Below, in pieces: positions 24,926-38,440 of a DNA stretch of 38,440 nt. This DNA comes from Candidatus Thorarchaeota archaeon (lineage in GTDB: Archaea > Asgardarchaeota > Thorarchaeia > Thorarchaeales > Thorarchaeaceae). The position numbers and the translations under genes are program-made. Location: NCBI GenBank assembly GCA_019057475.1, contig DXJO01000049.1:1-38440 (forward strand). Direction: 5' to 3'. The number at the start of each line of letters is the position of its first letter. Positions within the stretch are counted from its first letter, which is position 1. Under the pieces are notes generated by a model. It saw only the letters and a program-made list of their open reading frames with translations, ran no database searches and was not told the DNA's origin.

Positions 24926-25708
24926 ATGCACACTACTAGAGATATTCTGAAAGCGCTGACCAGCGGAAAGCTGACGATTGAAGAGGCAGAGAAGAAGCTC
25001 CAGGTTCTCACGCTAAGTCATGTGGAGGATCTTGCTGTCCTTGACCACGGTAGACAGGACCGGACTGGCATACCTGAGGTAGTCATGGCAAAAACAAAGC
25101 AGAGCGACGAAATCATCAAAATAACGAGAAACATGCTGGCTGCTAATGGGTTCGCACTACTTACAAGGGCAGACCAGAAGAAAATCGACGCTCTTGAGAG
25201 TGCTATCGATGATTATGTCATCAATGTGAGCGGTAGTGGAGATCATCTCACCGTGTTTGTTCATTCTCAGAACTGGAAACCCCCCGAAGCTTTGGGGAGA
25301 ATAGCCGTAATTACTGCTGGAACCTCAGACATTCCATATGCACGTGAAGTGGAAGCCATTGCCAAAGTCGTGGGAGTTGAAACACTATCATTCTTTGACG
25401 TAGGAGTGGCAGGAATCCACCGACTCATCGACCCCCTGAAGCAAATAATCGAAAAGGATGTAGATGCGGTAGTTGTCCTGGCAGGAATGGAGGGCGCACT
25501 GCCAACTGTAATAGCTTCGTTAGTCGATATTCCCGTGATAGGAGTGCCAATACCATCTGGCTACGGTTATGGTGGCGAAGGAATTTCTGCGCTATATTCA
25601 ATGCTCCAATCATGTGCACCAGGTCTAGCAGTGGTGAACATCGGTAATGGCCTTGGCGCAGGAGCCATAGCATCCCTCATTGCCAGAAGGAGAGGTAAAC
25701 CCAACTGA
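24926..25708 (+). CDS. larB: Nickel-pincer cofactor biosynthesis protein LarB (PurE-like)
   Basis: DHGRQDRTGIPEVV, TAGTSDIP, DVGVAGIHRL, AGMEGALP, GYG, MLQSCAPG, VVNIGNG. Confidence 0.93.
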   Translation: MHTTRDILKALTSGKLTIEEAEKKLQVLTLSHVEDLAVLDHGRQDRTGIPEVVMAKTKQSDEIIKITRNMLAANGFALLTRADQKKIDALESAIDDYVINVSGSGDHLTVFVHSQNWKPPEALGRIAVITAGTSDIPYAREVEAIAKVVGVETLSFFDVGVAGIHRLIDPLKQIIEKDVDAVVVLAGMEGALPTVIASLVDIPVIGVPIPSGYGYGGEGISALYSMLQSCAPGLAVVNIGNGLGAGAIASLIARRRGKPN

Positions 25709-25728: not shown

Positions 25729-26877
25729 TCACTCACCAAAGTGCCGAGCAATTTGAAGGTAGACATCAACAGATTGGAACATCTCATCAATGTGTATGTA
25801 TTCGTCAGGTTGGTGTGCCTGCTCGATGGAGCCGGGTCCACATATCACATTGATAACCTCTATCTTTGGTTGAAGTACCGAGCAGTCCGTGCCAAAAGTT
25901 GCCGCCGTGGGCACTGGCCGCCTTCCTGTAACCCGCTCAACTGCGTCGAGACTAACTCCGACTATTTCAGCATCACGGGGAGTTGAAACAGCAGGCTTGC
26001 CGTGAATGTACTCGATTTCGATGCATTCAGACAATCCAGATTTCGCAAGACGGGCATTCATCTCCGCCAGCACGGACTCCACGGTCTGCCCCTTGGACAG
26101 CCTCATGTCCAAGTGCGCTTCGCAGCGGTCGGGCACGACATTGATCTTCACTCCTCCTTTGATGATACCCACACTGATTGTTGGTTTGCCCAGCAGTTCA
26201 TCTGGTTCAAAGGTGTACGATTGGCCTGTAAGAACATCCAACGCTCTCGTGCATAATCGAATCGCGTTTTTCCCCTCGTTAGGTCTAGACCCGTGAGCGG
26301 CTTTGCCAGTCGCGATTACACGGGACCAGAACATTCCTTTCTCGCCGACAAGGACATTGAGGTTTGTGGGTTCCGCACAGACGCCAAACTTCACTCCCGC
26401 TAGCTTCCCGCTCTTAGCAACCTCTTCAGCACCTGAGCAGCCACTCTCTTCGTCAGATGTGGCCAGCATGAGAAGAGGAAGGTTGTGCTTCTCCTCGCTG
26501 TATAGAATCAGGGTTTCTGTCAAAGCTGTAACTGGCCCCTTCATGTCGCATGCCCCCCGCCCGTACATGCGTCCATCCACAAGCTCTGCACCGAATGGAT
26601 CGTAAGCCCAAGCATCTGGAGAACCAGCTGGTACAGTATCCATATGACCATGCAGGACTAGTGAACCCAATTCTTCGTCCACAGTAGAGAATATCAGATT
26701 TGGCCGATCACTTGGACCAACGGACTCGCAAGCGACACCGTGTGATTCCATATGGTCTCGAAGAACCTTGGCGACTTCAGCTTCTCTGCCCGGGGGGCTC
26801 TCAGAGTTCGTGGCTATGAGAGTTCTAAGAAGTGACAGCATCCGTGATTGGTTGGTCTTGATCAACTTGGCACCCAA
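25729..26877 (-). CDS. M20 metallopeptidase, ArgE/DapE family deacylase
   Basis: HGHMDTVP, GRGACDMKG, SDEE, AEPT, GKAAHGS, AHQPDEY. Confidence 0.92.
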   Translation of the reverse strand: MGAKLIKTNQSRMLSLLRTLIATNSESPPGREAEVAKVLRDHMESHGVACESVGPSDRPNLIFSTVDEELGSLVLHGHMDTVPAGSPDAWAYDPFGAELVDGRMYGRGACDMKGPVTALTETLILYSEEKHNLPLLMLATSDEESGCSGAEEVAKSGKLAGVKFGVCAEPTNLNVLVGEKGMFWSRVIATGKAAHGSRPNEGKNAIRLCTRALDVLTGQSYTFEPDELLGKPTISVGIIKGGVKINVVPDRCEAHLDMRLSKGQTVESVLAEMNARLAKSGLSECIEIEYIHGKPAVSTPRDAEIVGVSLDAVERVTGRRPVPTAATFGTDCSVLQPKIEVINVICGPGSIEQAHQPDEYIHIDEMFQSVDVYLQIARHFGE

Positions 26878-27007: not shown

Positions 27008-27199
27008 CTATACCCCTATAGCGATGTGCAAATCGTCACCCCACAGGATCCTGCGCTGTTTTCGAATGACGACCGGATATGTCCGTCCATATACATCTTC
27101 AACTGATACCTTGTACTCCCCTGAGAGGAACTTACGCACGGATTTCCGCAACTTGCGTGTGGGGATATCGCGAATGCGTATTGTGTAGGTTTCAGCCAT
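27008..27199 (-). CDS. Small basic hypothetical protein (63 aa)
   Basis: ATG 27199 after GGAG; MAETYTIRIRDIPTRKLRKSVRKFL...; TATATA upstream. Confidence 0.55.
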   Translation of the reverse strand: MAETYTIRIRDIPTRKLRKSVRKFLSGEYKVSVEDVYGRTYPVVIRKQRRILWGDDLHIAIGV

Positions 27200-27499
27200 G
27201 GTTCTTAGCTCCAACGGATGCTGGGTGGCGCGGCCAGCTTGTAACGGTGCGAAGCTTGTACAATGCTTCGTACGGTGGCATATATACGCAAATCGTTTCA
27301 ATTTCAACCGGGAGGGGCAAACAGAGTGGCCTTAGAAGTCATCTAGCTTGTGCGTTCTAACATCGCCTCTAGAACTGAGAGAACGTATTGTAACAGAGAA
27401 CACTGATGATGTCTTCGTCTTAACAAATGGCCAACATCCTGTATGGCAATTATGTATCGTATAGTAGATCCTTAGCGGCTATTTTTTGGTTGGACGTTC

Positions 27500-28975
27500 C
27501 TAGGGATTATACGCGAATGGGTGTCGAGCTGAGTCTTTCCTAGCTACAATCTCATTGACGTCTTGTCGTCGTTCTATCGCCCTTCGGATGGCGTGTCGAA
27601 CTGCACGGAAGTTGTTGATGTGCACACGCTTTGGATTATTGGCACTAGGATGCACGAATACATTGGCGGCTATCACCAAGTCAGGAATGAGCTCCTCAGG
27701 AATTATCATGTCTGTTATGGTGCGTGTCACAGCATCAGCCACTGCCTTCTGAGCTACTTCGTATACCAGCGCTTTGTGTTTTTCATCGACGATTGTAACT
27801 GTTGAAACGAAGACTGTTGTGGGTTCGAGGTCTTTGATGACATTGGAAGCATGAAAGCCCTCCGTCATTGTCCCGGCAGCTGCTAATGCTTCTTTGAGTG
27901 GTCCGTCCCGAAGACCCATGACAAGATCGACGTGTGCAACCTCCAGCCCTTCTCCAGCCAGCGCTTCTCCATGCAGCAATGTCAAGTCGTCGATGACTTC
28001 CGGAACTATGCCAATAGCCGTGGGATAGGACTCAGCAATCAAAGTCTTGTCGCCCATTTTGAACGTGACTGGTCCTCGCTTAATGAGTTGGAGGTCTTCC
28101 AAACACGTCCTGAGCTCGTCTATATCCTCGTACCTGAGAGCGTCACCTTCAATCAATGGAGCTCGTGCGGTTCCTACTGGAATCCCCATCATATTCAAGG
28201 CGGCCTTGACAGCAAGCCCGCCGCCCTTGTTTACCATTAGCCGGATTGTTTTCTGTAAGCTTCGTTGAATGATTAGGCCTTCCTTGAGGTCTCCGCTGGC
28301 AAGTGCTGCTTGCATTCGTATGTAGCGGTCTGGAAAGATATTGGCACTCAAGAGTATCGCACCATCACAGCCGGTAGCAAGGGCTGGAAGAGCAACCTCA
28401 TCATGTCCGATAACTACCTGAAAGGTTTCCGGCCGGCGAACGAGAATCGTCGTAAGATCAAGCAGGTTCGCACTTGAGTCCTTCATCCCGATGATTCCAT
28501 CTATCTCTCGGAGACCATCTACAAGCCACCAATCGATGTTAACTCCCGTCACTTGGGGGATATTGTAAAGGAATATCGGAATATCGCTTGCGTTGGCGAC
28601 CCGTTCAAAGTGCTCATAGATTTCCTTCGTGCTAGGTTTAAGGAAATACGGTGTGACCACTAGTGCGGCCGAAGCACCGAATTCAACAGCTCTCCTTGTG
28701 AGCTGAATGGCTTCCCTTGTGGATGCAGCTCCCGTGCCAGCCATTACAGGAACCCTGCCTTTTGCTGCGTCACAAGCAATCCTGAATGCATCGACCTTCT
28801 CATCGAAGCTCATGCTAGTGAATTCGCCTGTTGTTCCGCAAGGAACGATTCCCGTCGCACCACTCTTGATTACATGGTCAATCAATCCACGGTATTGCTC
28901 CTCGTTGACGCCATCTTTGCTGAATGGTGTTACCAAAGCGGGGAATACGCCCTTGAATGTGAAGTCATCTGTCAT
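27500..28975 (-). CDS. DapA/NAL-family Schiff-base aldolase fused to a formaldehyde-activating enzyme (Fae) domain, copy B
   Basis: PALVTPF, GTTGE, LYNIP, GMKDS; C-terminus GEALAGEGLEVAHVDLVMG..VTI..AQKAVADAV..VFVHPSA..N..AI.RAI..ARHPF matches Fae. Confidence 0.9.
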   Translation of the reverse strand: MTDDFTFKGVFPALVTPFSKDGVNEEQYRGLIDHVIKSGATGIVPCGTTGEFTSMSFDEKVDAFRIACDAAKGRVPVMAGTGAASTREAIQLTRRAVEFGASAALVVTPYFLKPSTKEIYEHFERVANASDIPIFLYNIPQVTGVNIDWWLVDGLREIDGIIGMKDSSANLLDLTTILVRRPETFQVVIGHDEVALPALATGCDGAILLSANIFPDRYIRMQAALASGDLKEGLIIQRSLQKTIRLMVNKGGGLAVKAALNMMGIPVGTARAPLIEGDALRYEDIDELRTCLEDLQLIKRGPVTFKMGDKTLIAESYPTAIGIVPEVIDDLTLLHGEALAGEGLEVAHVDLVMGLRDGPLKEALAAAGTMTEGFHASNVIKDLEPTTVFVSTVTIVDEKHKALVYEVAQKAVADAVTRTITDMIIPEELIPDLVIAANVFVHPSANNPKRVHINNFRAVRHAIRRAIERRQDVNEIVARKDSARHPFAYNP

Positions 28976-28981
28976 TTCTGA

Positions 28982-30379
28982 TCACTTCCATATCTGTCCC
29001 AAGGCAGCTGACACGACTCTCTCAGTCGCCGCTGTTACTTGCCGTCGGTTTCTGGAGTTTAGGTCAATGTCTAGTGCCATAATCACCACATTGTCAACAA
29101 TGACTTGATCTGGCACCTTGCCACTCTTGAGATGCGCCGCCACAGCCCTTGCGGCTCCTGACTGTACAGGCCCGTAGAAGAGGGTGGCCTGACGCATTGA
29201 CTTGATTTTCTTGATAGGCACCATGATGCTTGTCGGTCTCACAGGAAGATTAGGTTCCAATATCACCGTTAGTGCTTCGTGACCTACTCTTGGATTCATG
29301 AGCAGCTTAACGAATGCCGAACCCAGAGCGCTATGTTTCGGCCCGGTCATAATAGCCACTGACACGGTATCTTCAGAAGCCTTCCCGATTTCCGCATCTT
29401 GAAGGTAGTCCGGTCCAACTCCGAATGTCCCAAGAGCTCCTTGTATGTCGATGTCCTTTGTAGCCTTGGGATGAGTCAGGGCCTCTATCAGTCCAAGATT
29501 CTCCAGTTCAATTCGAATCTCAGCCCTTAGCTCATGAGTCAGAGTGCCGCCTGAATTCAAAGGCATTCTAGAATAGCCTGCGTTTATCCCCATTATTCTA
29601 AGCGCTGCCTTTACGGGAGGTGCGCCTCCCTTTCTTGTGACTATTCGTGCAAAGGTCTGCGCCGAGAGCTGAAGCTTCGCAGCATTCTTCATGTCACCCT
29701 TTTGCACCTTGTCCATGATGTCGAGCCAAATGTGAGGCATCACGTTTGCGGATGCCAAGATTGCCGCACTCGCTCCTGCCGCAACCGCAGAGAGGAAGCA
29801 CTCATCATGGCCAATCAGCACTGGCATCTTGCCATCTAGCTTCTGAATCAGCTCGAGAGTATGGCCTATGTGGCCACTACTATCCTTGATCCCAACGATA
29901 TTGTCAAGCTCGGCCAAGTCCTCTACAATGTTCGATTGCAGAACCCCGAGCGTACATTGTGGAATGTTATACATTATGATTGGCAGCCCGCCCGTTCCGG
30001 CAACAGCTTCATAGTGCTCGTAGTATCCCTTGTCTGTCGGGCGAAGATAGAATGGCGAAATGACTAGGGCTGCATCGCATCCTATGTCTGCAGCATACTT
30101 GGTCATCTTGACTGTTGCTTCTGTGCTAGTTTCTCCAGTCCCAGCCACCACGGGCACGCGACCATCCGCGAATTCCACACACATCTTGAAGAGTTTCTTC
30201 CGCTCCTCGGTCCGCATATAGACGAATTCTCCGGTCGTCCCAGCAGGCACAAGACCCGTCGCGCCCTTCTCAATCGTGTAATCGATTATGTCCTTGAATC
30301 CTTCTTCTATTATGTCGCCGTCCTTTGTGAAAGGGGTCACCAAGGCGGGCATAACACCCTTTGGTTCGAACTTAGCCAT
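28982..30379 (-). CDS. DapA/NAL-family Schiff-base aldolase fused to a partial Fae-like domain, copy A
   Basis: PALVTPF, GTTGE, MYNIP, GIKDS; C-terminus GPKHSALGSAF..GHEALTVILEPNLPVRPTSIMVP..IKSMRQATLFYGPVQ.G.ARAV matches the central part of Fae. Confidence 0.88.
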   Translation of the reverse strand: MAKFEPKGVMPALVTPFTKDGDIIEEGFKDIIDYTIEKGATGLVPAGTTGEFVYMRTEERKKLFKMCVEFADGRVPVVAGTGETSTEATVKMTKYAADIGCDAALVISPFYLRPTDKGYYEHYEAVAGTGGLPIIMYNIPQCTLGVLQSNIVEDLAELDNIVGIKDSSGHIGHTLELIQKLDGKMPVLIGHDECFLSAVAAGASAAILASANVMPHIWLDIMDKVQKGDMKNAAKLQLSAQTFARIVTRKGGAPPVKAALRIMGINAGYSRMPLNSGGTLTHELRAEIRIELENLGLIEALTHPKATKDIDIQGALGTFGVGPDYLQDAEIGKASEDTVSVAIMTGPKHSALGSAFVKLLMNPRVGHEALTVILEPNLPVRPTSIMVPIKKIKSMRQATLFYGPVQSGAARAVAAHLKSGKVPDQVIVDNVVIMALDIDLNSRNRRQVTAATERVVSAALGQIWK

Positions 30380-30417: not shown

Positions 30418-30424
30418 TATAAAA
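30418..30424 (-). promoter_or_regulatory. Putative TATA box of the aldolase-Fae pair
   Basis: TTTTATA on the minus strand ~40 nt upstream of ATG 30379. Confidence 0.55.
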
Positions 30425-30446: not shown

Positions 30447-32897
30447 TTAGTAGGATTTCGCCAAATTAGCGCGTCGTGCCGCGTACTGGAGCGAGTTGTT
30501 GAAGTACTGCCCTATCACCTTAGCTAGCGCCGGCCCCACAATATAGTTTATCTCGCCTGGGAGCATGGCATTCAAATTCGTCTTGGACGTCAATTTGCCG
30601 CTCCTCTTCAGATTCCCGATTTCTCTCTGGACAATGACCCTGGCCTCATCCCACGTCATGGCTTCAGCTTTGGGGCCAATCAGACCTCTCTTTATGTCAG
30701 AGATGGATCGCATTACGAACACAGCAAGACTGTCCAAGTCTTTGCTCTTAATCATCTGGCCGGAACCATGTTCAGAGCAAGCTCCTTCCTTGGGTATTGC
30801 ACCGCAATTTGTGCAGACAGAACGTCCTCGGCTTGTTCGTACATAGAATGCAAGAAGGTTGGCGAGCTTTGTATCGTCGTTTGCTGTCCAGTTCAAACCC
30901 GCAGTTCCAACTCGGGCTATTGCCCTGAATACGGTATGAGCCTTTGTGTAGACAAAAGATAGCGCATCGAGCGATGTCTTCTTGCGCTCAGCAAGCCTTT
31001 GCTGCTGTCGTTTTGCTTCAATGGCCAGTTCCTCTTTTGCCGCCATTCCAGACCGTTCCTGTTTCAAGAAGCGATGCATCACATCATATGCGATGGCGTA
31101 GTTATCAAACGTGAGCCCATCCCGGACTAGAGGGGCTTCCACTACACCCTCGAATACTGGACTTGGCGTTGATTCAAGATTCGAAGAAGCAGCATCCAAT
31201 GCCTTGCTTGCCAAACGTGCATGCATCCATGCGCTTAGTGTTGATGCATCGAGTTCAGGATGCACACATTTTAGCTCGTAGATGCGAATAGCTGTAAGGT
31301 CAATCAGGATCTCCTCGCGCAGGAATTGAAGCTCGGTTTCTGTATCTTCATAGATGCTCGTGAGTAGTGCCTTCATGCGGAGCAGGTCTTGCTTCGACCG
31401 CATGTAGGTTTCCACTATGCGTGTGAGATTCGTCAACAGACCTATAGTGAAATGCCAGACCAAGTCCAGCTTGATTGCTCTCGCGACTTCTTCATGCCTG
31501 AGTTGCTGACTTATATCAGAAACGGAGGCCATACCCAGTGAACTTAGAGCGCCATCATGAACTTGCTCACGCTGCTTGATGAGTAACTTGAGGTTCTCTG
31601 GAGAGGGAACACGCATCTTTGATTCGAGGGTTTCCAGTACTTGAACCTCAATGCCCATCAGGCTGCTGCGGTCCTTGGTCAGAAGATCCAATGATATCTT
31701 GTCTAACTCCGATGCTCTCCACCCCTTTGCTCTTAGCATACCCTTAACCTGCTTCTGGAGAGTGGTTTCAAGTTTCTCAAGACGTTTCAACGATCGCTCC
31801 ATTACCTCAAGGTCTTCCTTGTTGATGGAGGGGCCTTCGGCTTTGGCAGTAGGTGGCTCAGCCACACTCATCAAACCTTCTGCTAGCTGCAATACGTCTT
31901 TGACGCCCTTCACTCGCAGCGCGGCTTGAATATCACTGGAGTTAATCTGAAGTAGCTGTGACAGCATATTGTAGACGCTGTCAGGCTCAGCTTTGATCAT
32001 CTCACTCAAATGGTTCGCGACTACCTGACCCATCTTCGCCTCATACTCCTCAAGCGATGTGGGCGTTTCGAGATCGATTTCTACAGCTTCGATTAGCCTA
32101 AGCTTCAATTCATGGGCAGCTCGTATCGCCTGTGTTTCCAGAGGGCTCTGGCAGAATCGTTTCAGCACCGCATCAGAAATAGCGTTCCAAGCCGAGTCAG
32201 TAACGGATTGCGTGGGTCGTCCCTCTGCGTACTTCATAGTCCCGTAAATTTGACTCAGACCACGGGTTAGAACCGTGATTTCTGCAGTTTCTTCATCTCT
32301 GGGTCTGAGCAATTCATCCCTCAAAGAGAGAGCGGTTTCTTTCAGACCAGAAGCCTTTGTGTAAAGTTCTCGCCTCCATGCTGCGCTCCAGCCAGTTACT
32401 TCATTAATGAAATCAATATCATGATTTGGCGAATAGTCAGTTGGAATCTTTCCGAGATACTCCTTCACCAAGGATAGAGCCATTTCCTTCGTGCTTTGAT
32501 CAGTTGCGCTTTTGTCGCCTAGCTTATCTGCGGCCTTGATGAAGAACTCACTTACAAGGCGGGATACATCGACCTCCTCTTGGAATTTAACACCGAGCAG
32601 CTCCCGAATCTCTAACTCAAGCTGACGACGCTCCTTGCGTGTTGCTTCGTCCTTGAGCTCAATTGTAAGGTCTTGCGCCTCATCAAACCCTAGCAGCTTA
32701 ACACCTTGGTAATGGTACAACCAGAATGACGCAAAGAAGGATAAGATATCTTCCATGGGTCGAGAGCCTTCCGCAATTTCCGTTAAGAGCTGACGATCCC
32801 TATTACTTCGCATGTGGTTGACAAGCGCTTCCCTCAGGAGAATCTCCTTTCCAGCCTCGGACATCTGCCTGGTCTTGAGAATCCATGAACTTGCCAC
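30447..32897 (-). CDS. Large alpha-helical hypothetical protein with C-terminal Zn-ribbon-like motif
   Basis: 816 aa; coiled-coil segments; CTNC..CSEH; GTG start overlaps the upstream TAG (TAGTG). Confidence 0.8.
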   Translation of the reverse strand: MASSWILKTRQMSEAGKEILLREALVNHMRSNRDRQLLTEIAEGSRPMEDILSFFASFWLYHYQGVKLLGFDEAQDLTIELKDEATRKERRQLELEIRELLGVKFQEEVDVSRLVSEFFIKAADKLGDKSATDQSTKEMALSLVKEYLGKIPTDYSPNHDIDFINEVTGWSAAWRRELYTKASGLKETALSLRDELLRPRDEETAEITVLTRGLSQIYGTMKYAEGRPTQSVTDSAWNAISDAVLKRFCQSPLETQAIRAAHELKLRLIEAVEIDLETPTSLEEYEAKMGQVVANHLSEMIKAEPDSVYNMLSQLLQINSSDIQAALRVKGVKDVLQLAEGLMSVAEPPTAKAEGPSINKEDLEVMERSLKRLEKLETTLQKQVKGMLRAKGWRASELDKISLDLLTKDRSSLMGIEVQVLETLESKMRVPSPENLKLLIKQREQVHDGALSSLGMASVSDISQQLRHEEVARAIKLDLVWHFTIGLLTNLTRIVETYMRSKQDLLRMKALLTSIYEDTETELQFLREEILIDLTAIRIYELKCVHPELDASTLSAWMHARLASKALDAASSNLESTPSPVFEGVVEAPLVRDGLTFDNYAIAYDVMHRFLKQERSGMAAKEELAIEAKRQQQRLAERKKTSLDALSFVYTKAHTVFRAIARVGTAGLNWTANDDTKLANLLAFYVRTSRGRSVCTNCGAIPKEGACSEHGSGQMIKSKDLDSLAVFVMRSISDIKRGLIGPKAEAMTWDEARVIVQREIGNLKRSGKLTSKTNLNAMLPGEINYIVGPALAKVIGQYFNNSLQYAARRANLAKSY

Positions 32898-35515
32898 TAG
32901 ACTGCACCTCCCATCTTGCTTCCACCGATTCTGATTGTGAGTTCGCTTCCTCTTTGTTCATAGGTTACCACATAGATGAAGTCAGGAGAATCAGGATTTC
33001 TTAGATACGCTCTTGTTGGCCGCGGAAGTAGTCTACTTAATCCTCTAATGACCGAATCCATCAGATACTCGAGAAACTCGTCACCAATGCTGAGAGAGAT
33101 TGTTTCGGTGGCAGTCGATCCCTCAGATTGCAGTTGTTTCAACCTTTCAAGGAAAATGGCTTCCATCTTCTCTTGACTCTCATTCATCATTGAGAGTTCC
33201 TTTGTCATGGTGTCGCGTAGCTCAGTATAGAGTAGTGTTTCTTGTGACATCTCGGGCGTGGGTGGAATTGGATGTTCTGAAAGACCGGGTGAGTACTCAG
33301 CATCAATGTCAGCAATGCGCAAATTCATGCTTCGAGGAGGATTGGGCTTGTCTGGGATAGTGATGCCAGTGCTATCAAGAGATGCTTGAGCAAGTCTTCG
33401 CTTCTCTCGGATCGATTCATACTCGGCCGTTTCCTCGTTGAATTGGGATTGTGTCTGCTGAAGCAGAGTATCCCTCGTTTCGTTGTGAGCCCTTATCTTG
33501 GCATTCTCAGCTTCTATTACTTGGCGTTCTTGTTCCCATTCCTGAACCAGAATCTGATACTCCTGTTCTCGCACATTGGCCTTGCTGGCAATTCGCTCAA
33601 CTGTTGACCGCGCAGTTCCCCTGCGTCCTGCCTTATCATGAATAAACTGTAGGAAATCCATCAGCTTAGTGGAGAGGCTATCATCCGTTCCTTGAACGCG
33701 AAAATCCTCAACCCAGAGCCGGGCTTCGGTTTTCCACATCTCGGGTTTCTCACTCTGCTTGTCTATTATCGACAACAGCGCTTCCGTCAGGTCAACGCCT
33801 TCATTCAGGACTGCATCAATAGCCTCCGAAATTAATGCCTTGCTCAAGAGGTGGTCCGCCACATCGGGCACCACATCTGCTACAAGGGTCTCGAAGTCGG
33901 AGAGTAAATTCTGAAGTGCTATGCCGGTTTCTGAGAGTGTAGCACTGCCCTCACTGACTCCAGCTGAGTGGTTGTTCTCGATTTCAGAGCGGACAACCTG
34001 AGCCACGTCGCCGAATCTTATCAAGGCCCATGCATCAATCTTCTCAAAGGATTCTTGGATATCACTGACAATCACGCTTATCAACTCGGCTGGATGATCT
34101 TGCTTGGAGCCTTCGAACGCCTTCTTGCCAATGACCGCATTCAGTTGACTATACAAATCATCGAAGAACTTGTGGAATAGCATGGTTTCAGTGGGACCCA
34201 TCTCTTGATTTGACATCTCGTCCCGGAAATCCCGCATAGTTTCGAATATCGCTCTTCTGGTTGCCCCCACAATCAGGTATTGCTGCAAATCCAGCACGAA
34301 GTACTGAGCCACTTTCTTGGCATAAACGACGAAATACCTCATGGTGCTCTTCAGCTGCCACGCCCTCAGCTCATCGTTAACGGGGAACTCACGCTCAACG
34401 GATTCCATCATATAGCTCACAAGGTTTTTCGCGAGTTCAGTCTTGAATCCATCAAACCGCGTCTTGTCAGATTCTATCTCGGAGTTGAGCTTGGACTTGT
34501 GTTCTGAGAGCGACAGTGTGAGTCCAGAACTAACGTGCTGCTCAATAACCACTTCAAATGAATCAACAGTTTCAGTTAGGAGCGTAGCGAATTCGTTTGT
34601 CCTCTTCTTGAGTGAATCGAGCTCGCGGATTTCCGCTCGCTCACTCCCGAGAAACTGAACAAGGGCAGCAATCGATGCGCGAACGATGTCTACCTCTTCT
34701 ATACCGTAGGCGTATGTGTTTAGTTCGCTTAGAATTGCTCTGCCCGTGTTAGCAACACTTGATGATATCGTTTCAATAGCCAAGGGCGTGAGGATTCTTT
34801 GTTTGAAGTAGTGGATTTTCTCTATCTCGCTCGATTTAGGAGAATCAAACCTAAGGTCGGTGCGCTCCACTATTGTTATCCCGGGAGGCAACGTAGTGAA
34901 GTCGTCGCGGCACTGTAATTTGATAGCGACTTCCTCGTCGATGTTTTCCGATTTAAGCTGAATCGAGTCCCACGAACCCTTGAACTGACGGTCCATCAAT
35001 TCTACAAAGACAACGCGGTTCAGGCGATCCACGAACTTGCTAAGTATGGCCATCCCATCGGTTTCGTAGTTCAAGCTGCTATTAACAACTGCAGCCTCCA
35101 CGTCAGCAATCTTCTTTGATAATCCCTGCATATGATTGTCAATCTTGAACGGATCTACAATGCCCTCTTCCCAGCTCAGCACACACACATGAGAACTAAC
35201 CTCATTTGACAAAGCACCAGCGATGGAGAGCTGTTCTGGCAGAACTTCGGAACCTTGAGCGCGGTCTAGGTTCCATTCCAATGAGAGTATCTCAAGACCC
35301 TCTGTTTTTCTTAGAGCATCCCTAATCGCGAAGACTAGAGACGATATATTCATGGCAACAGCTTCGGAATTCTGTTCCATCATGCTGCCAGAGCCTATTG
35401 CACTACCAAGGGGGTTCCCACGACTTGTGGAAACTCCAAGTACTGAGGCCGAAGCCATTCTGATTGCCTCAATGGTGCTTCGAGCTTGCGCCTTTTTTCT
35501 GGATAGTCCGCTCAT
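32897..35515 (-). CDS. Large acidic alpha-helical / coiled-coil hypothetical protein
   Basis: ~872 aa open frame; long coiled coil (EQEYQILVQEWEQERQVIEAENAKIRAHNE..); no catalytic motif recognised. Confidence 0.8.
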   Translation of the reverse strand: MSGLSRKKAQARSTIEAIRMASASVLGVSTSRGNPLGSAIGSGSMMEQNSEAVAMNISSLVFAIRDALRKTEGLEILSLEWNLDRAQGSEVLPEQLSIAGALSNEVSSHVCVLSWEEGIVDPFKIDNHMQGLSKKIADVEAAVVNSSLNYETDGMAILSKFVDRLNRVVFVELMDRQFKGSWDSIQLKSENIDEEVAIKLQCRDDFTTLPPGITIVERTDLRFDSPKSSEIEKIHYFKQRILTPLAIETISSSVANTGRAILSELNTYAYGIEEVDIVRASIAALVQFLGSERAEIRELDSLKKRTNEFATLLTETVDSFEVVIEQHVSSGLTLSLSEHKSKLNSEIESDKTRFDGFKTELAKNLVSYMMESVEREFPVNDELRAWQLKSTMRYFVVYAKKVAQYFVLDLQQYLIVGATRRAIFETMRDFRDEMSNQEMGPTETMLFHKFFDDLYSQLNAVIGKKAFEGSKQDHPAELISVIVSDIQESFEKIDAWALIRFGDVAQVVRSEIENNHSAGVSEGSATLSETGIALQNLLSDFETLVADVVPDVADHLLSKALISEAIDAVLNEGVDLTEALLSIIDKQSEKPEMWKTEARLWVEDFRVQGTDDSLSTKLMDFLQFIHDKAGRRGTARSTVERIASKANVREQEYQILVQEWEQERQVIEAENAKIRAHNETRDTLLQQTQSQFNEETAEYESIREKRRLAQASLDSTGITIPDKPNPPRSMNLRIADIDAEYSPGLSEHPIPPTPEMSQETLLYTELRDTMTKELSMMNESQEKMEAIFLERLKQLQSEGSTATETISLSIGDEFLEYLMDSVIRGLSRLLPRPTRAYLRNPDSPDFIYVVTYEQRGSELTIRIGGSKMGGAV

Positions 35516-35656
35516 CAATCGGTCCCCTGAACGAATTTCATAATTCGTAGATTGTCAGAAACTATGAACAGGGCTGCCCGATGCTGTTCTGGTTTCTGGT
35601 AAGGGACTTTCGTGTGGGTGTCTTTTGAATCTAGCTCGATTGTACATTGAAGGGAA

Positions 35657-37209: not shown

Positions 37210-37340
37210 ACATCAATGTCCTTGACTGATGTTCGGTTCCTGATTCATCGAGGTCTGCTCTGCAGATCCTATTGGATCTGCGACAAGTCTTACATCCTCT
37301 CCACAGGCGTTTTCTGTCTCCGTCCAACTGGCGGCGACAA
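37160..37340 (-). ncRNA. Putative TnpB omegaRNA (reRNA) scaffold plus flanking guide
   Basis: Overlaps the tnpB 3' end; hairpin GCAGATCC-AATA-GGATCTGC (37262-37281) and CATCA..TGATG stem. Boundaries are approximate. Confidence 0.55.
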
Positions 37341-38440
37341 GATTACATGCAGCGTTGAAATCGCGGTCCAGCTCCAACCCGCACTCATCACAGACGTAGA
37401 CTCTGTCTGATAAGCTCAGGTCGCTCTTGATATTCCCGCAGACTGAACATTTCTTCGATGACGGGTAGAATCTTGGGGCAACAACAAGTTCGGAACCGTA
37501 CCACTCGCACTTGTACCCCAATTGTCTTCTGAACTCGTAGAACCCTACATCAGCAATCACTCGGGACAGTCTCCTGTTCTTCAGCAGCCCTGAGACACAC
37601 AGGTCCTCAATCACTATCTGACTGTGGTTCTTGGCCAGATGGGTCGTGATCTTGTGCAGTGTGTCTTGCCGTATGTTGAAGACTCTTAGATGGAGTCTAG
37701 CAAGTCCAAGTCTTGCCTTCTCCCTGTTCTTGCTCCCTCTCTTCTTTCGTGATAGGCTCTTGGATAGTTTCCTCAGCTTTCTCAGTCTCTTCTCTAGGAT
37801 TCGCGGATTGGAATACGTAGTTCCATCAGAGAGAGTGGCCAGAGTCTTGACACCAAGGTCCACTCCTACAGGTCCGCCTTTTGGAGGTTCAGGAATAATT
37901 ATCTCCATCTCAACAGTCACTGATACATGCCATCTGTCAGCTCTTCTGGTCACGGTGGCCGACAGGACCCTTCCTTTGAAGTAGCTCTCTCTCTTCTCCT
38001 TGAGCCTGATTCTTCCTAGTCGTGGTAATTGAATCATTCGACCAATAAATCGGATAGTGCCAGTGAGCCTGAAACTGTCGTGTACACCCCGCTTCTTGAA
38101 CCTGGGAAATCCCACTCTCTTCCCGCACTTCAGTCCCCGATAGAAGTTCTTGAAGGCGCGTTCAAGGTCTCTCAGGGCTTCCTGTGGGGCACACTTGGAA
38201 ACCTCGTACATCCATGGGAAGACCGTTTTCTTCAGTCGGTTCAGTTCCCTGTGTTGTGCAATAGCACTGGCAAAACGCTTCTTGTCCTGATTCTGACGGT
38301 AGAGTGCGATTCTCTGCTGCAGACCCCAGTTGTAGGCAAAACGCGCACACCCGGCATGTCGAGAGAGCCTAGTCCTCTGCTGGTTGTTTGGGTCCAGTTC
38401 ATATTTGAAGGCTCTAGCAATCAGCATTGAACATCCACAC
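37182..38440 (-). mobile_element. IS200/IS605- or IS607-type TnpB element (left end outside the window)
   Basis: Intact tnpB; minus-strand downstream sequence ..TGTGCAAGTTTCGGGCAACGG resembles IS607-type right ends; no transposase visible in the window. Confidence 0.7.
37213..38427 (-). CDS. tnpB: RNA-guided endonuclease TnpB
   Basis: HTH_OrfB-like N-terminus (HAGCARFAYNWGL), RuvC GVDLG / VIEDL / DRDFNAA, zinc finger CSVC..CDEC. Confidence 0.95.
   Translation of the reverse strand: MLIARAFKYELDPNNQQRTRLSRHAGCARFAYNWGLQQRIALYRQNQDKKRFASAIAQHRELNRLKKTVFPWMYEVSKCAPQEALRDLERAFKNFYRGLKCGKRVGFPRFKKRGVHDSFRLTGTIRFIGRMIQLPRLGRIRLKEKRESYFKGRVLSATVTRRADRWHVSVTVEMEIIIPEPPKGGPVGVDLGVKTLATLSDGTTYSNPRILEKRLRKLRKLSKSLSRKKRGSKNREKARLGLARLHLRVFNIRQDTLHKITTHLAKNHSQIVIEDLCVSGLLKNRRLSRVIADVGFYEFRRQLGYKCEWYGSELVVAPRFYPSSKKCSVCGNIKSDLSLSDRVYVCDECGLELDRDFNAACNLVAASWTETENACGEDVRLVADPIGSAEQTSMNQEPNISQGH

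Follow-up and report, generated by a model that had tools for sequence, protein, structure and literature searches.

A tandem pair of aldolase-Fae fusion genes

The stretch of DNA analyzed here (the window) comprises 38,440 nucleotides, positions 1 to 38,440 of contig DXJO01000049.1 from a Candidatus Thorarchaeota archaeon (assembly GCA_019057475.1). Its minus strand carries two adjacent genes, gene A (28982–30379, with its ATG at 30379; 465 aa) and, after a gap of 6 nt, gene B (27500–28975; 491 aa), each of which encodes a Fae domain preceded by a class I pyruvate aldolase barrel. The Fae domain of B has the catalytic face, and that of A is truncated and would belong to a completing subunit. 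An archaeal TATA box (TTTTATA, 30418–30424, minus strand) lies ~40 nt upstream of gene A and is recognizable from its sequence and from the boxes of relatives; a TTATA-type box is found at a similar distance from the start of gene A in all 20 relatives in which that start could be placed. Metatranscriptome contigs of relatives span both genes and the A-B junction, which is consistent with co-transcription of A and B, although contigs by themselves cannot prove a single transcript.

Both domains of both proteins score above the curated Pfam cut-offs, with E values of 7e-74 (A) and 1.5e-72 (B) for DHDPS (PF00701) and of 7e-24 (A, profile positions 11–133 of 159) and 4e-33 (B, positions 2–158) for Fae (PF08714). 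The Fae profile TIGR03126 (cut-off 118.05) is passed by B with 125.5 and is not reached by A, which scores 79.3. The two proteins are 35% identical to each other and contain the only Fae domains in the host genome, in which a search for Hps found none. A preliminary description, made from the sequence alone, had recognized two tandem DapA-Fae paralogues 6 nt apart with a TATA box of their own and had pointed to a GTTGE motif, a catalytic Tyr and a Schiff-base Lys; the profile scan that it proposed bears out the domains, and both A and B contain GTTGE, Tyr137 and Lys165.

The nearest relatives of A and B are Thorarchaeota proteins that carry the database name dihydrodipicolinate synthase (DHDPS). 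Gene A precedes gene B in 49 of the 49 Thorarchaeia loci with DNA upstream of B, and two other Asgard families (G007 and G053) likewise have tandem pairs. Bathyarchaeia have a single-copy fusion of ~492 aa, as do no fewer than seven further Asgard families, and many of the genomes with a single fusion also carry Fae-Hps. The Bathyarchaeia query region matched up to 1918 clusters, most of which are not countable as fusions; among the matches listed, 120 of 120 bear Fae and nearly all are DapA-Fae. The tree of the barrels leaves the deep order unresolved, its sole supported grouping being that of the Thorarchaeia A barrels with the A barrel of G007 (95/88). Literature searches found no paper on a DapA-Fae fusion, and A and B thus belong to a conserved and apparently undescribed enzyme family.

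Residues of the Fae site and of the barrels

Alignment of the Fae domains to M. extorquens Fae and to Asgard Fae-Hps indicated that each of them is incomplete. The domain of A (29000–29371, minus strand) keeps GHEAL (366–370), LEPNL (374–378) and GPVQ (403–406), has Ser340 and Ala342 in place of His22 and Asp24 of M. extorquens Fae, and has no C-terminal arm. The domain of B (27515–27970, minus strand) keeps His348, Asp350, Phe440-Val-His-Pro and the C-terminal His485-Pro-Phe, has Thr392 in place of Lys71, and has an EPNL loop that is shorter by ~4 residues. His348, Asp350, FVHP and the HPF arm are invariant across the relatives of B, as are EALxxILEPNL and YGPVQ across those of A. A complete set of His22/Asp24 face, EPNL face and C-terminal arm is found in neither chain singly, only in A and B jointly; the single-copy fusions retain both the His/Asp and the EPNL residue sets, and the tandem pairs of G007 and G053 divide the Fae residues in the same manner as A and B. 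The individual residues, such as those of the His22/Asp24 face, presumably have the roles that we attribute to them in Fae. The alignments therefore suggest that A and B carry complementary halves of one Fae site, so that the preliminary description was right about the architecture of the two proteins and wrong to treat them as two complete enzymes. The possibility it raised, that the C-terminal domains might not be Fae at all, is answered by the PF08714 matches of both domains and by the predicted fold of the domain of A (pLDDT 88.7), for which the best Foldseek match was 1y60 (E 3e-14, TM 0.85) and only 1y60 and 1y5y were matched.

A model of the two Fae domains together scored 0.84, with the best control at 0.39; separate runs share at least 84% of contacts, and the pLDDT of the partners is at least 84. 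The mark by which we judge such models is reached by 58 of 80 solved pairs and by 2 of 110 mismatched pairs, and a high score here may stem from likeness to the solved Fae pentamer. In the model the His face of B is brought against the loop face of A. Conserved columns at the modeled contact face of B are kept at 0.76 in B and 0.20 in A, and those at the contact face of A at 0.68 in A and 0.33 in B, a comparison that is partly circular, as the faces were defined from the model. We think it highly probable that A and B form a heteromer. M. extorquens Fae (PDB 1Y5Y/1Y60; PF08714, TIGR03126) shares with A and B its fold, the His/Asp strand, FxHP, the C-terminal HPF arm and an inter-subunit site. 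In A and B, however, there is one face per gene, and because the free faces of both are degenerate we would expect A and B to close into a single-site unit and not to form a five-fold ring. Such a unit would also resolve the conflict of a two-fold barrel with a five-fold ring.

The barrels were compared with Escherichia coli DapA, NanA and YagE across four aligned groups of fusions. The barrel of A (29552–30364, minus strand) keeps Thr48, Thr49, Tyr111 (the equivalent of the trans-acting Tyr107), Tyr137 and Lys165, with Cys142 for Arg138, Leu208 for Ser204 and Gly252 for Asn248; that of B (28142–28957, minus strand) keeps Thr48, Thr49, Tyr137 and Lys165, with Phe111 for Tyr107, Val142 for Arg138 and Leu208 for Ser204. 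Thr44, Thr45, Tyr133 and Lys161 (DapA numbering) are retained in every group, and their equivalents in A and B (Thr48/49, Tyr137 and Lys165), together with Asp192/Glu193, are conserved at 96–100% in both. Arg138, Asn248 and Ser204 are substituted in all four groups, Arg138 by Cys, or by Val in B, Asn248 by Gly or Ala, and Ser204 by Leu or Met. The near-invariant Leu or Met at the Ser204/Gly207 position (Leu208) suggests a small acceptor pocket, suited to a small aldehyde. In DHDPS, Arg138 binds aspartate semialdehyde and Tyr107 extends into the neighboring subunit (PMC3188589). The equivalent of Tyr107 is Tyr in 93% of A and Phe in 98% of B, so that A could complete the proton relay of B but not vice versa.

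With PF00701 above its cut-off and a Schiff-base Lys, A and B belong to the DapA/NAL superfamily of class I pyruvate aldolases (DHDPS, NanA, YagE, HOGA, KDG aldolase), with which they share the Thr-Thr pair, Tyr133, Lys161, the trans Tyr107 relay and a NanA-like GxDE, but from which they differ in lacking Arg138 and Asn248 and in having Leu at 204. They pass the cut-off of the DHDPS profile TIGR00674 (206 bits) with 217 and 233 bits. Against the N-acetylneuraminate lyase (NAL) family they score 147–153 bits (cut-off 382) and have Leu-Ala or Leu-Leu where NAL has its sugar-binding Gly207-Ser208 motif; no cut-off was reached for NanA, HpaI, KdgD or archaeal KDG aldolase. Searches of the host genome (96% complete) for dapB, asd, hom and aspartate kinase found none, with positive controls for the dapB and asd searches. 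Because Arg138, Asn248 and Ser204 are substituted and dapB and asd were not found, the barrels are almost certainly not DHDPS. The host has a third gene of the DHDPS family (contig C3; L005:1474–2373), which lacks Fae and is closest to KdgD, below the KdgD cut-off.

Gene context, candidate substrate and carrier

Two further genes accompany the fusions: X1, an unnamed gene of 428 aa, and X6, a U32-like gene of 315 aa. Around single-copy fusions X1 is present in 25 of 39 loci and X6 in 11 of 39 (one or the other in 36), and the two never occur together. Across 111 Asgard genomes, 60 of the 61 with a fusion have either X1 or X6 and none has the two together; the exception ends at a contig edge. 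Within one Loki-type family X1 is found in 18 of 19 fusion-positive and in 0 of 9 fusion-negative genomes. In G041 and G058, which belong to one genus, X1 and X6 occupy the same place between aligned flanks; comparison of their profiles gives a weak match (E 0.006, probability 6%), and gene context is thus the basis for regarding the two as equivalent. The host X1 lies on contig C46 (75152–76438; L114:9147–10451; 63–72% identical), X1 is present in 29 of 29 Thorarchaeia relatives, and archaeal sequences are more than 50% identical to that of a betaproteobacterium. Invariant residues of X1 (Glu, His, Lys and Arg) point to a metal or Schiff-base enzyme. Its predicted structure is a TIM barrel, none of whose structural matches was outstanding (best Z 12.1, rmsd 4.4, 254 aligned), and searches with X1 of Pfam, NCBIfam, the PDB and the atlas gave no match. 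In L181, L182 and L185, X1 stands between a GlmS-like gene and a gene for an amino-acid dehydrogenase with CBS domains.

Two Asgard families have X1 without the fusion, ftr or RFAP synthase. Where it occurs without the fusion, X1 heads an operon with genes for a class I aminotransferase and a homoserine dehydrogenase in 11 of the 11 loci with enough DNA, and for an aldehyde:ferredoxin oxidoreductase (AOR) in 10 (L204–L217). The homoserine dehydrogenase exceeds its family cut-off (427 against 373 bits), and the operon recurs in metagenome loci of other archaeal lineages, the low-GC loci lying beside 2-oxoacid:ferredoxin oxidoreductase genes. In two GC-rich, bacterial-type loci a PanB paralogue lies directly upstream of X1; in engineered E. 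coli, PanB has been used to convert 4-hydroxy-2-oxobutanoate (HOB) to pyruvate and methylene-H4F (PMC6966089). HOB is the one compound that joins a pyruvate/formaldehyde aldol reaction, a transaminase with homoserine dehydrogenase, and PanB, and the X1 operon and PanB contexts thus point to the interconversion of HOB with pyruvate and methylene-pterin. HOB, which the preliminary description had guessed at along with homoserine, is on this gene context probably the substrate of the fusion enzyme.

Other surroundings of X1 were also noted. The gene immediately upstream of X1 in the fusion-free genome G089 (L209:5085–6131) is a divergent member of the DHDPS family that has no Fae domain. On the Polaromonas plasmid CP087967 (L117), X1 is transcribed divergently from a cluster comprising a D-2-hydroxyacid oxidase-like gene, dapA, a TRAP transporter, Ldh_2, an iron ADH and a semialdehyde dehydrogenase, which could oxidize the HOB skeleton to malate. 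Two other roles were considered and rejected: replacement of PanB in CoA synthesis, as canonical PanB is present in the host and in 27 of 29 relatives, and, as the general reason for X1, supply of aspartate semialdehyde for archaeal aromatic synthesis, since DHQ synthase II was found in 0 of 29 Thorarchaeia and, within the two operon-carrying families, in 1 of 11 and 0 of 7 genomes.

As to the carrier of the one-carbon (C1) unit, mch and mer are present in the host genome (contigs C18 and C19), whereas searches there for RFAP synthase, mtd, ftr and fwdA found none; a search for bacterial-type Mtd recovered no control either and carries no information. Since these genes were not found and dihydropteroate synthase (DHPS), FolD and Fhs are present, the host carrier is likelier to be a folate, or a salvaged pterin, than tetrahydromethanopterin (H4MPT), and the coupling to H4MPT put forward in the preliminary description is doubtful here, mch and mer notwithstanding. 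For the single-copy fusion enzymes H4MPT is plausible. In many of the Thorarchaeia relatives, ftr and mtd are retained and RFAP synthase was not found.

The proposed reaction and competing explanations

We propose, with a probability of about 60%, that A and B constitute one heteromeric two-step hydroxymethyltransferase that interconverts HOB and a reduced pterin with pyruvate and methylene-pterin; of this we infer the complex, the substrate and the carrier. The barrel would make or cleave the C3-C4 bond by way of a Schiff base at Lys165, the aldehyde being formaldehyde, and Tyr111 of A would be supplied to the barrel of B. A Fae site composed of the His348 face of B and the EPNL/Gln406 face of A would condense or release formaldehyde, and X1 would act on the other side of HOB or homoserine. 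The analogy to Fae-Hps (tetrahydromethanopterin hydro-lyase/3-hexulose-6-phosphate synthase; NF009833) drawn in the preliminary description is apt, in that a formaldehyde-handling aldolase barrel is fused to Fae. Unlike Fae-Hps, however, A and B have a Schiff-base barrel of the DapA/NAL type (PF00701, not Hps), the reverse domain order, Thr for Lys71 and a site spread over two genes, and they score 68 and 95 bits against an NF009833 cut-off of 274. The proposed net reaction, pyruvate + C1 ⇌ HOB ⇌ homoserine, is that of the engineered HOB pathway (PanB) and of the homoserine cycle (with RhmA/YfaU and GarL as HOB aldolase) (PMC6966089, PMC8879981), but those pathways depend on side activities in unrelated folds and describe HOB as non-natural, whereas A and B would be a dedicated natural enzyme. 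By analogy, A and B would combine a design like that of Fae-Hps with a net reaction like that of PanB; they belong to neither family, nor to DHDPS.

Several observations weigh against this proposal. Lys71 of Fae is Thr in all fusions, B and single-copy alike, and Lys in Asgard Fae-Hps. RFAP synthase was recovered from 1 of 29 relatives, although from most other fusion-carrying Asgard, and the pair is retained in ~10 genomes that lack both ftr and mtd. The link to HOB by way of X1 is indirect, and X1 is not adjacent to the pair in Thorarchaeia; related genomes, moreover, are non-independent samples in the co-occurrence counts. Asp192/Glu193, the NanA equivalents of which bind the polyol tail, are near invariant in the fusions with no obvious need for them if the aldehyde is formaldehyde. 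Finally, E. coli DapA and YjhH failed as HOB aldolase in a Pseudomonas putida selection (bioRxiv 2025.02.17.638773), so the fold by itself does not confer this activity.

The Asp192/Glu193 pair leads to the best-surviving alternative, that the same architecture and chemistry serve another 2-oxo acid, such as ketopantoate (in a catabolic ketopantoate aldolase), 3,4-dihydroxy-2-oxobutanoate or a formaldehyde-releasing branched sugar acid. These residues could hold extra hydroxyls, and bacterial X1/X6 genes lie beside genes for IlvD, an enolase-type dehydratase, a lactonase-like protein, DhaKL or PanB. The homoserine dehydrogenase of the X1 operon, passing its cut-off and recurring in several archaeal lineages, tells against such a substrate, and the canonical PanB of the host and its relatives leaves no need for a biosynthetic substitute; we regard this alternative as unlikely. 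Less likely again is that the Thorarchaeia Fae domains have no pterin C1 chemistry and serve as a heterodimerization or regulatory module, the aldolase using free formaldehyde or another small aldehyde. The missing RFAP synthase, mtd, ftr and fwdA and the replacement of Lys71 would fit such a role, H4MPT is the partner given for M. extorquens Fae (PMC8879981), and no Fae activity with folate is documented in the literature we found; yet one full site is invariant across B and A together, DHPS, FolD and Fhs are present, and mch and mer are kept. We give very little weight to the idea that A and B are separate homo-oligomers with different substrates, for example in two successive steps: both barrels keep their catalytic residues, that of A still being under selection, but each Fae domain misses one inter-subunit face, and adjacency and order are kept throughout the 49 informative loci and also in two other families. 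Least probable is a true DHDPS fused by chance to Fae, an alternative that the preliminary description had itself weighed, since the TIGR00674 scores and database names that agree with it are set against the loss of the aspartate-semialdehyde-binding Arg138 (PMC3188589) and of Asn248 and the failure to find dapB, asd and hom.

If A and B act as proposed, they could serve either to build the homoserine/threonine skeleton from pyruvate and C1 or to break it down, as the preliminary description had allowed, and we rate the two directions about even. Synthesis is favored by the two threonine-synthase-like genes of the host (L231:4167–5339 and L232:4475–5746), where aspartate kinase, asd and hom were not found, by similar genes that several lineages have close to the fusion or to X1, and by the distribution of canonical homoserine dehydrogenase in the Loki-type family, where it is found in 8 of 9 fusion-negative and 4 of 19 fusion-positive genomes (kin that are not independent). 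Breakdown is favored by AOR, usually an aldehyde oxidizer, in the alternative X1 operon, by the transporters, dehydratases and dehydrogenases of bacterial X1/X6 clusters, and by searches of the host genome that found neither homoserine kinase nor a MetB-family gene; FolD and Fhs could then carry C1 to formate with a gain of ATP.

The genes around the pair in Thorarchaeia (an M20 peptidase, two large ORFs of no known family and a nucleotidyltransferase) have the look of conserved synteny and give no functional clue. In the window, the two ORFs (816 and 873 aa; 30447–35518; no Pfam match) lie upstream of gene A, as they do in 43 and 35 of 51 Thorarchaeia loci, and the M20 deacylase gene (25729–26877) is syntenic in 37 of 51. 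A 99-aa ORF (27008–27307, minus strand) has relatives in 10 loci, and one metatranscriptome is far deeper over it than over its neighbors. The window also contains genes for LarB (nickel pincer cofactor; 24926–25708) and for a 404-aa TnpB of the IS200/IS605/IS607 type (37213–38427).

Whatever the substrate, the lysine-biosynthesis annotation of this large family distorts metabolic models of Asgard and Bathyarchaeia, and A and B would offer a clean case of an inter-subunit site shared out between two paralogues. X1/X6, a very conserved unnamed enzyme family, gains a testable substrate. More tentatively, HOB may be a natural hub metabolite in sediment archaea, with a dedicated aldolase-Fae enzyme and X1/X6 forming an aspartate-independent route to homoserine and threonine, or its reverse, and with a split heteromer in Thorarchaeia, its Fae site having changed over to folate. 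The proposed one-carbon transfer between pyruvate and a folate-like carrier is so far known only from engineered bacteria; if HOB is the substrate, the fusions would be the natural counterpart of a reaction that synthetic methylotrophy borrows from side activities, and a candidate part for C1 biotechnology, and there is a fair chance that they represent a natural pathway new to biology.

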